DNA from: Ignicoccus pacificus DSM 13166
GTDB taxonomy: Archaea > Thermoproteota > Thermoprotei_A > Sulfolobales > Ignicoccaceae
Reading direction: 5' to 3'
Length of the DNA stretch: 32,000 nucleotides
Assembly (NCBI GenBank): GCA_025340205.1
Contig: CP006868.1
Coordinates: forward strand, 840,001-872,000
A program made the position numbers and the translations under genes. Each line of letters opens with the position of its first letter. Positions within the stretch are counted from its first letter, which is position 1. Under the pieces are notes generated by a model that saw nothing but the letters and a program-made list of their open reading frames with translations, did no database searches and was not told where the DNA came from. This document shows, one piece after another, positions 25,740 to 28,133 of this stretch.

Positions 25740-27077
25740 TCATCCTAGTTGTAGTCTCAAGACAGGAGGTGGCATGTGCCCTTCTCTAGTTATGAATGAA
25801 TTCGGGGAGAGGTCCTCTAGAGGAAGAACCACTCCTTTGCCTAACAGTCCACCTAGGTCTATCACGTCTCCCGGCTTGGAATTGGGTACTGGAAGTAACC
25901 TTACGCCCATGGGTTTGTTGTGAACGATGCCTATTGTCAGCTGGTCTGCAGTAAGTGACGCTAAGGTCTCTTTACTTACCATGGGTATTGGAACCATATC
26001 AAGGCCGGCGGAACATATAGCCGTGTACGCTACTAACTTGTATATATCCACGGTTCCCCTTTCGGCAGCTTCTAACATTCCGGCATCCTCGCTGAGAGGT
26101 ATGAATAGACCAGAGAATCCTCCAAATCTAGAGACAGCCATGGCTCCACCCTTTTTCAAGGCATCGATCACTAGCGCGAGTGCGGTGAGCGTTCCAGGAG
26201 CGCCAAAGCTGGGGACACCCATGGCTTCAACTACCTTGGCTACACTATCCCCCATCTTAGGAGTAGGCGCTAAGCTGAGATCGACAGAGCCCATCTCGAT
26301 ACCCATTTTCTGGGCGACTTTCTTTCCTGCGAACTCTCCTAGCCTCGAGATCTTGAAGCTAACCTTCTTTATTTCTTCGTGTAGATCCCTAAACGTCCTT
26401 GCATTAGATCTCCTTATCGCAGCTTCAACTACACCGGGGCCGGAGACGGCCACGTTGATCTCCGCACTAGGTCTTCCTAAGCCGTGGTGAGCTCCTGGCA
26501 TGAAGGGAACGTCGCCAGGTAAGTTTACCGAGACCAGAAACTTAGCGTTTCCGGTAGCATTAGTGAGCTTGGCCAACTCGATAAGTTTCCCACTTATAGA
26601 ATAAATGGCCTCTATGTTAAGTCCATCCCAAGTGCCACCCACATTGATGAATCCGAACACCCTCTCAGTGGTGCTGAGCGCCTTTGGCAAGGCTTCGAGA
26701 AAACCTTTCGTAACCTCGTCTAAACCGGTGTTAGCAAAGGTTCCAAATCCTCCAACGGCGTCTACTCCGACCCTCCTCGCGGCCTCGTCTACTTCCTTAG
26801 CATATTCGATCATTCTGTCTATGTCACCATCGCTAGTGATGACGTTCAAAGGAGAAAGAGCTATCCTTGAAGTAACTATAGGTACGCCGTGTTCCTCTAC
26901 CACCTCTCTAACAGCTCTTACTAGCTCCTCTCCCCATTTCTCTACTAACGACGCTGCTACCTCTGGGTAGTCCTTATCTGAAGGAACCTCTAATGAGAGG
27001 GTAACTGCTCTTATATCTAGGTTTAAGTAGTGGAGCATCTCGGTTACTTCGGCGATTTCCTCGGTTCTGAACATCAT
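25740..27077 (-). CDS. UPF0210 (DUF711) family protein
   Basis: The N-terminus MFRTEEIAEVTEMLHYLNLDIRAVTLSL resembles the UPF0210 signature (eIlEt.rMi....LDIRTiT.GIsL), and the size is about 445 aa. The ATG at 27077 overlaps the upstream stop (ATGA); GTG 27086 is an alternative. Confidence 0.75.
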   Translation of the reverse strand: MMFRTEEIAEVTEMLHYLNLDIRAVTLSLEVPSDKDYPEVAASLVEKWGEELVRAVREVVEEHGVPIVTSRIALSPLNVITSDGDIDRMIEYAKEVDEAARRVGVDAVGGFGTFANTGLDEVTKGFLEALPKALSTTERVFGFINVGGTWDGLNIEAIYSISGKLIELAKLTNATGNAKFLVSVNLPGDVPFMPGAHHGLGRPSAEINVAVSGPGVVEAAIRRSNARTFRDLHEEIKKVSFKISRLGEFAGKKVAQKMGIEMGSVDLSLAPTPKMGDSVAKVVEAMGVPSFGAPGTLTALALVIDALKKGGAMAVSRFGGFSGLFIPLSEDAGMLEAAERGTVDIYKLVAYTAICSAGLDMVPIPMVSKETLASLTADQLTIGIVHNKPMGVRLLPVPNSKPGDVIDLGGLLGKGVVLPLEDLSPNSFITREGHMPPPVLRLQLG

Positions 27078-27463
27078 ATCTTCCACCTTTTTCTCTTATA
27101 ATATCTTAGCTCCATGACCCTTGAGAACCAATCCCTAGGGGCGAGCTTGAATAAACAAGCTCTCGGTTCCAGAACGCCAATCCATAAGGGGGAAGGCGGG
27201 ATCTCTATATCAGCGAAATAGGCTTCAGTTACCTTGTTCAGCTCTCTTCTTGAGCGCTCGAGAGCTTCGCTAATTTGATGAGTGCCGTAATAGTATAATA
27301 ACACCTCTATAGGAAATGCCTTGGAAATCATGGATCCTTTTAACATATCTTCATAAGCAAAGATAGCGGATATTCTGAGCCTTATGGGATCGGTACCATA
27401 TGCGTGTCTGGGCCTCTCTGGTACCCTAGCCTTTCCCCAGAAGAGCGTTTGAAACGTCTTCAC
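27074..27463 (-). CDS. Small protein, possibly a KEOPS Cgi121-like subunit
   Basis: EVLLYYYGTHQISEALERS resembles the conserved Cgi121 block (E-I/A-L-L/V-x-x-S-G-x-x-Q-I-x-x-A-I). It is short (129 aa) and overlaps the hpt-like gene by 38 nt. Weak call. Confidence 0.35.
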   Translation of the reverse strand: MKTFQTLFWGKARVPERPRHAYGTDPIRLRISAIFAYEDMLKGSMISKAFPIEVLLYYYGTHQISEALERSRRELNKVTEAYFADIEIPPSPLWIGVLEPRACLFKLAPRDWFSRVMELRYYKRKRWKI

Positions 27464-27950
27464 CCAGCAGCCTTGGAAGTAACTCCTTAACGCTTTCTTC
27501 CCCTTTCTTGATGAGTTCTACTACTTCCCACGGAAATAAGATCCAAGCGTCGCTCTCAATAACCCAATGGTCTATCTTCGCCCTACATTTAGACTTTTTG
27601 ACGATAACAGCTTTCTTTACTTCCTTAGCTCCTAGCATTTTCAAATAGCTTTCTAAAATGGTAATAGTTTCGCCGGTATCACAAACATCATCAACTATTA
27701 GTACTTTCTTCTCAAGGAGATCGCACAAGGGAGTAAGTATTCTAGGCTGGCCCAGTTTATGAGTTCCTTGATATGATTTCACCCTAACGGCCACAACGTC
27801 TTTGGACAGAATGTCTGAGAGTAAGATAGCCGGAACTATACCCCCTCTTAAGACACCTACAATAATATCGAAATCTTCATCTTTAACTTTCTTAGATAAG
27901 TCTAAGGTGAATTTGTGTACCTTTTTCCAGTCAATTAATTCGAATTCCAT
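27426..27950 (-). CDS. Purine phosphoribosyltransferase (hypoxanthine/guanine/xanthine PRTase-like)
   Basis: PRPP-binding motif KKVLIVDDVCDTGETI and an N-terminal IVGVLRGG loop. An SD-like GAGGTGA lies 5 nt upstream of the ATG. Confidence 0.8.
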   Translation of the reverse strand: MEFELIDWKKVHKFTLDLSKKVKDEDFDIIVGVLRGGIVPAILLSDILSKDVVAVRVKSYQGTHKLGQPRILTPLCDLLEKKVLIVDDVCDTGETITILESYLKMLGAKEVKKAVIVKKSKCRAKIDHWVIESDAWILFPWEVVELIKKGEESVKELLPRLLGEDVSNALLGKG

Positions 27951-27972
27951 ACTCTCACCTCAAGGGAGGGAA

Positions 27973-28043
27973 TGTGCCCTGCCCCTGACCCCCCGGTTCA
28001 CCGTCCGGTACACCGGCCTCACCGGGGTTCTCCTAAGCAGGGC
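27973..28043 (-). ncRNA. Box H/ACA guide sRNA (single hairpin with K-turn)
   Basis: On the - strand: GCCCUGC / UUAGGAGAA / CCCCGG-U / GA / GGCCGG-UGUA-CCGGAC / GGU / GA / A-CCGGGG / GGUCAGGG / GCAGGGC / ACA. This gives a 7-bp lower stem, a 9+8-nt pocket and a 7-bp upper stem. A canonical K-turn follows (3-nt bulge plus tandem G.A). The ACA lies exactly 15 nt 3' of the upper stem. The region is very GC-rich compared with its flanks. Confidence 0.7.
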
Positions 28044-28133
28044 GCTCCAAGGTTAGGTTAAGATAAACGGTTTAAGAGATATCCAGCCTAGGTGATATTA
28101 ATCTCAAGTAAAGGACAGATTGGGGCTCAATGA

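Follow-up and report, generated by a model that had tools for sequence, protein, structure and literature searches.

Locus and structure of the element

In Ignicoccus pacificus DSM 13166 a spacer of 183 nucleotides (nt) separates two divergent open reading frames (ORFs), one for a phosphoribosyltransferase (PRTase) and the other for a surface protein of 985 amino acids (aa) with a CARDB domain. On the minus strand of this spacer, which lies within the 32,000-nt stretch of contig CP006868.1 analysed here (the window), I identified a 71-nt block with a G+C content of 0.70, against 0.30-0.45 in its flanks, and this block (28043..27973) is very likely the gene of a canonical single-hairpin archaeal box H/ACA guide small RNA (sRNA). 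I assign it to this class because the hairpin agrees with the structural rules for archaeal H/ACA RNAs, keeps its place in front of the same gene, covaries across six lineages, and is aligned over its whole length by no Rfam families other than H/ACA ones. The kind of RNA is already known; the element itself is conserved and, very probably, previously unannotated, and a literature search returned no report of H/ACA sRNAs for Ignicoccus. A first-pass annotation had described the GC-rich block inside the 183-nt spacer, with two stems, an internal loop, a kink-turn (K-turn), a UGUA cap and an ACA box on the minus strand, the box 15 nt from the upper stem and 22 nt before the PRTase ATG at 27950, with GAGGUGA between box and ATG. 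All of these features are where it had placed them (Table 1).

Table 1. Features of the hairpin element and its surroundings, in positions of the window (bp, base pairs; strand as given by the analysis)
Feature	Position	Strand	Detail
Intergenic spacer	27951..28133		183 nt, between divergent ORFs
A/T-rich promoter-like block	28058..28075	-	TTAAAC at -32..-27 and TTTATCTTAA at -24..-15 from the first hairpin base
Basal stem H1, 5' strand	28037..28043	-	GCCCUGC; pairs with 27976-27982, 7 bp
Pocket 5' strand (5' guide)	28028..28036	-	UUAGGAGAA, 9 nt
Upper stem H2, 5' strand	28021..28027	-	CCCCGG (28027-28022) and U of the 3b-3n pair (28021); pairs with 27991-27997
K-turn module	27998..28020	-	GA 28020-28019; bulge GGU 28002-28000; GA 27999-27998
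K-turn C-stem and loop	within 27998..28020	-	GGCCGG/CCGGAC, loop UGUA (28012-28009); read from the sequence
Upper stem H2, 3' strand	27991..27997	-	A (3b, 27997) and CCGGGG (27996-27991); U-A pair 28021/27997
Pocket 3' strand (3' guide)	27983..27990	-	GGUCAGGG, 8 nt
Basal stem H1, 3' strand	27976..27982	-	GCAGGGC; pairs with 28037-28043
Box ACA	27973..27975	-	directly 3' of H1; 15 nt from the upper stem/pocket top
Shine-Dalgarno-like GAGGUGA of the PRTase gene	27955..27961	-	11 nt from the hairpin element
PRTase gene	27426..27950	-	first gene downstream of the element
129-aa middle ORF	27074..27463	-	overlaps PRTase by 38 nt and DUF711 by 13 nt
DUF711/UPF0210 gene	25740..27086		third in the order
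84-codon ORF	27802..28056	+	antisense over the element and the PRTase start
Near-palindromic A/T block TTAATAT	28091..28102		~30 nt upstream of the surface-protein ATG (28134)

The hairpin exceeds what chance would produce, because its minimum free energy of -41.6 kcal/mol corresponds to z = -3.3, with none of 200 shuffled sequences folding as well, because the element occurs as a single copy within the window, and because compensatory changes accompany it in five further lineages.

Work on Pyrococcus has given a set of rules for H/ACA RNAs: the basal stem (H1) has 7 bp or more and is flanked by ACA, each pocket strand has 5-11 nt, the upper stem (H2) has 5-6 bp, a K-turn or K-loop is present, and the ANA box lies 14-15 nt from the target U (PMC2377435; PMC3849170). 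Here H1 has 7 bp (GCCCUGC/GCAGGGC) with ACA directly after it, the pocket strands have 9 and 8 nt, H2 has 6 bp (CCCCGG/CCGGGG) and one Watson-Crick pair adjoining the G.A pairs, and the K-turn has a tandem GA/GA, a 3-nt bulge and a C-stem closed by G-C. The distance from the box to the target U would be 14 nt for a site in helix 69 (H69) of 23S rRNA and 15 nt for a site at U914, both discussed below. The claim of the first-pass annotation that the element satisfies every architectural rule for archaeal H/ACA guides is thereby borne out for all of the structural rules (PMC2377435; PMC3849170). Two of the counts depend on how pairs are assigned. The pocket shrinks to 7 + 6 nt if two extra Y-G or U.G pairs (Y, pyrimidine) predicted by RNAalifold form, and H2 has 7 bp if the pair next to G.A is counted, a length at which some predicted Pyrococcus RNAs were non-functional (PMC2377435). 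I count 6 bp because the pair adjoining G.A is assigned to the K-turn, as in the alignment of the Pyrococcus RNA Pab91.

Rfam was scanned with cmscan at gathering thresholds and then in a permissive mode (E-values up to 10). The best permissive match over the hairpin is Pab91 (RF02795), which covers exactly 27973-28043 on the minus strand at 19.5 bits against a gathering score of 71, and the second is the third (3') hairpin of HgcG/Pab40 (RF00064), at 14.5 bits against 77. These two Pyrococcus H/ACA families, both far below threshold, are the only ones that align to the whole hairpin. A check of the minus strand with Infernal and Rfam, which the first-pass annotation had proposed, therefore divides: the best alignments are to H/ACA families, but none reaches its gathering score. 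The element would function like the Pab91 and HgcG/Pab40 RNAs, yet is a member of neither curated family; its stems, K-turn and ACA nevertheless line up in register with an H/ACA RNA that has been validated by experiment. Matches to SNORD123, dauA and long non-coding RNAs in the permissive scan score low, fall within coding sequences or parts of the hairpin, and were dismissed as chance.

Conservation and covariation

A covariance model was made from the first four copies of the element, and relatives were reached through the PRTase and DUF711 proteins. Copies scoring 90-102 bits were found in six distinct lineages, in each case directly upstream of a PRTase ortholog and 13-40 nt from it: the window (I. 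pacificus DSM 13166), locus L001 (metagenome-assembled genome, MAG, GCA_054016855.1), L002/L003 (JGI metagenomes), L143 (ENA), L145/L146 (MAG GCA_054016835.1 and a Logan assembly) and L148 (JGI). Three of the sRNA-bearing loci were added by the search with the DUF711 protein. The gene upstream of the element differs: in four lineages it is that of the divergent surface protein, and the other two have a small ORF that is co-directional. Mean identity between lineages is 85% for the sRNA, 56% for the PRTase coding sequence and 44% for the 60 nt upstream, and the PRTase proteins are only ~50% identical across the six. Three loci with DUF711 and no PRTase (L147, L149 and L150) have no copy of the sRNA within 5 kb. 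For further searches, a compact signature of the sRNA is GGTCAGGG-N7-ACA with a K-turn upstream; a scan of metagenomes with a degenerate pattern gave 14 matches, all 14 without the stems and attributable to chance.

The 19 Watson-Crick or G.U pairs of the hairpin are 99.1% paired across the six distinct sequences, and five of them show compensatory changes in both partners; the basal stem holds one of these and the upper stem the other four, among them the pair that adjoins G.A. The basal stem is 100% paired in the six lineages, with one compensatory change from G-C to A-U and one G.U, and in the upper stem double compensatory changes affect 4 of 7 pairs across lineages. None of 500 shuffles matched the observed pairing and covariation, sliding the partners by 1-3 columns left 31-55% paired, and RNAalifold recovered the same three helices from the six lineages. 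In related genomes, then, the stems covary; divergence without covariation was the outcome that the first-pass annotation had named as telling against a guide RNA. The minus strand is the functional one, because the G.U pairs of homologs (in the lower stem of L143 and at 3b-3n of L002) would be C.A mismatches on the opposite strand, and because the ACA and GA motifs are present on the minus strand only.

The invariant parts that are unpaired are exactly those that an H/ACA RNA requires, namely the ACA box, the GA/UGA of the K-turn and the pocket strands. ACA, all 8 nt of the 3' pocket strand GGUCAGGG and the AGAA of the 5' pocket strand are identical in the six lineages, and the sequence diverges directly after the ACA. 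AGAA comprises the 4 nt nearest the upper stem; the fifth nt is always a purine, and the sixth and seventh vary. In the K-turn, GA/UGA and the C-stem are invariant apart from L002, where 2n is U instead of G; bulge and loop differ between lineages, and the 3b-3n pair beside the G.A pairs varies but covaries.

Several observations weigh against reading the element as a guide RNA. Nowhere in the window does an Rfam family attain its gathering score. L002 has UA in place of GA on the non-bulged strand of the K-turn (U at 2n). The covariation is drawn from six sequences, and pairs were counted in an alignment that had been fitted to the model. Neither I. hospitalis nor I. islandicus yielded the sRNA; its locus there could be reached only by way of PRTase or DUF711, and these species were not reached because they have no orthologs of either protein, the closest DUF711 in a named species being at 47%. 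Finally, guide function is that of a candidate, put forward on sequence, with binding and catalysis modelled on the H/ACA family.

The following mechanism is proposed. The RNA folds into a basal stem, a pocket, an upper stem and a K-turn, an arrangement seen alike in the predicted fold, the conservation and the covariation. By analogy with the family, L7Ae would bind the K-turn, and Cbf5, Nop10 and Gar1 would dock on the basal stem and the ACA. The two pocket strands would each pair with rRNA, one on each flank of a U-N left unpaired, and that U would be isomerised to pseudouridine (psi) by Cbf5.

Candidate rRNA targets

Targets were sought in the 16S and 23S rRNAs of the congener I. hospitalis, taken from the alignments in the supplement of PMC4644070. 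The literal target that the first-pass annotation had derived from the pocket, 5'-CCCUGACC-U-N-UUCUCCUAA-3', is absent from these rRNAs, and a bipartite search of E. coli and I. hospitalis rRNAs in the canonical register gave no site that also pairs with UUCUCCUAA. The idea behind that search, that rRNA holds a bipartite complement of the guides, nevertheless has some support in the rRNA of the congener, where a two-sided site exists in H69 with the pairing shifted by one nt on each side. This site is U2075 of 23S rRNA, on the 3' strand of H69, in the context UAACUCUGAC-U-C-UCUUAAGG. The guides of all six lineages can pair with it as CUCUGAC-U-C-UCUU (7 + 4 bp), nt 2-8 of the 3' guide (GUCAGGG) with CUCUGAC and nt 2-5 of the 5' guide (R-A-G-A; R, purine) with UCUU, and one guide nt is left unpaired on each side at the pocket top, as in Pab91. 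U2075 is the sole site in I. hospitalis 16S and 23S rRNA that is contiguously paired on both sides with all six guides; a comparable site arose in 6 of 2000 shuffled rRNAs in any register and in 2 of 2000 in the register of Pab91. It also explains the pattern of conservation, because the invariant guide bases face invariant rRNA and the fifth base of the 5' guide, A or G depending on lineage, faces a U with which both can pair. The two freely varying nt of the 5' guide would face A-A.

In E. coli numbering the U of this site is equivalent to 1921 and, because it lies at +4 from the equivalent of psi1917, it corresponds to psi2264 of yeast, which is guided by snR3, and to psi3747 of human, both of them helix-69 pseudouridines (PMC2794176). 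U2060 of S. islandicus is the equivalent of yeast psi2260, and H69 is already an H/ACA target in that archaeon (PMC11077068). The base at the site is U in I. hospitalis, N. equitans and the MAG L140, and C in Sulfolobus, Pyrobaculum, Methanopyrus and Methanococcus. Judged from the rRNA of the congener, U2075 in H69 would be the most likely target of the guide, with about an even chance of being the right one. Three things count against it: the assignment assumes that I. pacificus has the same H69 as I. hospitalis, the 5' side pairs over 4 bp only and one guide base per side is unpaired, and the 3' guide has a better match, of 8 Watson-Crick bp, at U914.

The last of these points to another reading, in which the element is a genuine H/ACA guide whose main or additional target is U914 in domain II of I. 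hospitalis 23S rRNA (equivalent to E. coli U767), in the context CCCCUGACC-U-C-CGCCUAG. Here nt 1-8 of the 3' guide pair with CCCUGACC in the register that the first-pass annotation had assumed: GGUCAGGG forms 8 Watson-Crick bp, without a mismatch, with CCCUGACC, which is followed by U, and the next best match to the 3' guide in the I. hospitalis rRNAs is of 4 bp. With an offset of 2 nt the 5' guide of I. pacificus pairs at 6 of 7 positions of the I. hospitalis CGCCUAG, a total reached by 4 of 300 shuffles, and U914 would lie 15 nt from the ACA, within the rules (PMC2377435). On this reading the positions that vary in the 5' guide would follow the changes of a lineage-variable helix strand. 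Precedents exist, in that the 3' guide of Pyrococcus RNAs outweighs the 5' guide and UN or even UNN may be unpaired (PMC2377435; PMC3849170), a single Pyrococcus H/ACA motif can guide several sites (PMC2377435), and sR435 of S. islandicus guides eight (PMC11077068). However, the invariant AGAA would then face a species-variable helix strand or stay unpaired, and with the I. hospitalis flank the guides of the other five lineages form poor pairings, none of them reaching 3 contiguous bp. The canonical register needs an rRNA strand 2 nt longer than that of all 11 archaeal sequences inspected, the MAGs L140-L142 carry C at the position of U914, and a literature search found no pseudouridine at the equivalent position. 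I therefore regard U914 as an unlikely target, main or additional, and H69 as the one to be preferred.

A yeast-like site in H38/H39, GACC-U-A-UUCUCAAAC, was also considered. A genome scan anchored on AAACTCCGAA gave no matches, the I. hospitalis alignment reads CCCGUCAAACUCCGAA at that place, without the motif, and the site was rejected.

The search for rRNAs brought some further observations. The window contains no rRNA or tRNA, and two tRNAs are present in related loci. The pattern CCCTGACCT-N5-TAGGGGTGAAAGGCCAATC, which is exact in the published I. hospitalis 23S rRNA, had no match in the collection of genome contigs, where rRNA is apparently masked or the genomes are absent. The antisense strand of I. 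hospitalis 23S positions 3-1169 (sequence from PMC4644070) holds a stop-free frame of 389 codons, and 79 public 'proteins' (P0008-P0086) are spurious gene calls, being translations of this antisense 23S frame in rRNA genes of archaea. Following the antisense frame led to the rRNA loci of the relatives L140-L142 and L144, and to none from Ignicoccus or from the sRNA-bearing genomes. Two of these MAG loci have ORFs with LAGLIDADG domains inside their rRNA operons (L141:3906-4397 and L142:3741-4004), which probably encode homing endonucleases of introns. In domain II, the strand 3' of GACC runs for 6 nt before an invariant UAGGGG in 11 of 11 archaeal sequences, and its changes are matched on the opposite strand. 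GACC is followed by U in Ignicoccus, Sulfolobus, Pyrobaculum and L144, and by C in L140-L142, Methanopyrus and Nanoarchaeum.

Transcription and alternative roles

The A/T-rich block ahead of the hairpin is, from its sequence, probably the promoter of the sRNA, with a TATA-like element ~27-32 nt upstream. An A/T-rich, TATA-like element stands 25-45 nt upstream of the hairpin in all six lineages, in a spacer that is otherwise unconserved. Between the ACA and the start codon, a distance of 13-40 nt in the six lineages, there is no promoter and no oligo-T, nor is there room for a second promoter. Because neither a terminator nor a second promoter precedes the start codon, the sRNA is probably the first part of the operon transcript. 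It would form the 5' end of the PRTase-operon transcript and would then be trimmed out of it or be active while attached. That an H/ACA RNA tolerates a 3' extension is evident from HgcF and HgcG, multi-hairpin archaeal RNAs with internal ACA boxes. GGUGA is conserved ahead of the PRTase ATG in an alignment of four lineages and is also present in L145.

Such a position of the element, 22 nt ahead of the start codon and 11 nt ahead of the Shine-Dalgarno-like sequence, raises the question: Could the hairpin be a regulator of the mRNA instead of a guide? It might be a K-turn operator through which L7Ae, or another protein, controls the translation or stability of the PRTase-DUF711 mRNA. All six lineages retain the link with the PRTase gene despite differing upstream genes, the L7Ae gene follows DUF711 in two lineages, and archaeal L7Ae binds a K-turn in the leader of its own mRNA and so regulates translation (PMC6298567), a leader of that type being defined by a K-turn that folds only once L7Ae binds and then blocks initiation. 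However, an operator has no need of a 7-bp basal stem, of an ACA fixed 15 nt from the pocket, or of invariant pocket strands of 8 and 4 nt; the Shine-Dalgarno-like sequence lies outside the hairpin and is left free in the predicted fold of the leader; and L7Ae is unlinked in the window and in three other lineages. An operator in place of a guide is thus very improbable. Regulation by L7Ae is compatible with the element as a role secondary to guide function, and not as its sole function. A more elaborate role would follow if the H/ACA ribonucleoprotein (RNP) assembled on the PRTase-DUF711 leader and stayed there, as a fixed sRNA-operon fusion retained throughout a clade of Ignicoccus relatives, and if it coupled expression of this nucleotide-salvage operon to how much L7Ae/Cbf5 is available or to ribosome biogenesis, besides guiding the archaeal counterpart of psi2264; I consider this improbable.

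Scarcely credible is a metabolite-sensing or attenuating leader of the purine-salvage operon, akin to a riboswitch, or a GC-rich hairpin of no function. A riboswitch-like element would suit the place in the PRTase leader, the conserved nt of the internal loop and the lack of an Rfam family at threshold. But no riboswitch family aligns even at E-values up to 10, no alternative terminator or antiterminator pairing and no oligo-T are present, the conserved strands of the loop match, as complements, rRNA at a recognised hot spot of pseudouridylation, and all distances specific to H/ACA RNAs are kept. A functionless hairpin is excluded because of the compensatory changes. The preferred reading is thus still that of an H/ACA guide carried at the start of an mRNA.

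Gene context

The operon downstream of the sRNA runs from PRTase through the 129-aa ORF to DUF711/UPF0210. The PRTase protein is 100% identical to IPA_05030 of I. pacificus DSM 13166 and matches Pfam PF00156, and the DUF711/UPF0210 protein is 100% identical to IPA_05020. The middle ORF has no Pfam match; its similarity to Cgi121 scores 21 bits against a cut-off of 40, and the label 'Cgi121-like' that the first-pass annotation gave it is accordingly weak. An ORF of 126-132 aa occupies the equivalent place in L001, L143, L145 and L148.

In two of the related loci DUF711 is followed directly, in the same orientation, by the gene for L7Ae (PF01248), the subunit that binds the K-turn in H/ACA and C/D RNPs (L145:6502-6888 and L148:6505-6891); tblastn found no L7Ae gene in the window, L001, L002 or L143.

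On the other strand of the window, the 84-codon ORF is almost certainly spurious, its frame remaining open because the GC-rich hairpin keeps it so. The TTAATAT block is probably the TATA box of the divergent surface-protein gene, to which it would give a very short leader, and is separate from the TATA-like element proposed for the sRNA.

Comparison with known guide RNAs and significance

The nearest known likeness is to Pab91/Pfu91 (RF02795), which guides psi2685 in the 23S rRNA of P. abyssi. Both are single hairpins with a basal stem followed by ACA, a 6-bp H2, one Watson-Crick pair and a K-turn with tandem G.A, and 15 nt from the pocket top to the ACA, and cmscan aligns them end to end over 27973-28043 with no indels in the stem. 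In the H69 pairing, the single guide base left unpaired at either side of the pocket top would resemble the a/g positions of Pab91. The two differ in guide sequence and in target (Pab91 acts on the E. coli 2604/2605 region, and H69 or domain II would be the target here), in the basal stem (9 bp against 7 here) and in the C-stem and loop, which are 14 nt longer here; moreover, the host here is a crenarchaeon and the gene sits in an mRNA leader.

Among crenarchaeal Cbf5 guides, the atypical sR148 of S. islandicus, which serves psi2060 and psi2066 in helix 69 of 23S rRNA (PMC11077068), is directed at the same H69 strand, and the 5' flank of that strand, UGACCC, corresponds to the GGGUCA-type core of the 3' guide here. 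Unlike the present element, sR148 is without a lower stem and ACA and works with one guide only, on the 3' side; the positions it serves correspond to E. coli 1917 and 1923 rather than 1921, and Sulfolobus has C at the position proposed here. Two other S. islandicus RNAs, sR115 and sR435, share the classic architecture of an upper stem with K-turn, an internal loop of large size, a lower stem and the ACA (PMC11077068). Beyond the archaea, yeast snR3 and its human counterpart (25S psi2264 and 28S psi3747) have the same predicted target nt, in an identical UGAC-U-C-UCUUAAGG, and the same box H/ACA mechanism. They differ in that they consist of two hairpins, carry H as well as ACA boxes and lack a K-turn, and there is no detectable sequence relationship.

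A guide that shares the transcript of its neighbour is not new in kind. In P. abyssi most of the long 5' untranslated regions of high G+C had already been annotated as C/D or H/ACA RNAs (PMC3849170), and the C/D sRNAs of N. equitans include dicistronic precursors and RNAs that overlap genes (PMC3491384). The difference, and the only unusual aspect, is that linkage to one operon is kept over six lineages, the shared transcript here being predicted from sequence.

Our understanding of how H/ACA RNPs work is unchanged by this finding. What it adds is a well-supported H/ACA guide RNA in Ignicoccus, the host of Nanoarchaeum and a genus for which the literature search found none, together with a six-lineage alignment that can be used for annotation by covariance model. 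The conserved fusion to a leader offers a convenient case in which to study the release of a guide RNA from mRNAs, or its function within them. Finally, the H69 assignment yields a testable prediction: these archaea would pseudouridylate the position in the stem of H69 at which yeast carries psi2264 and human psi3747, and which is a C in most of the other archaea inspected.

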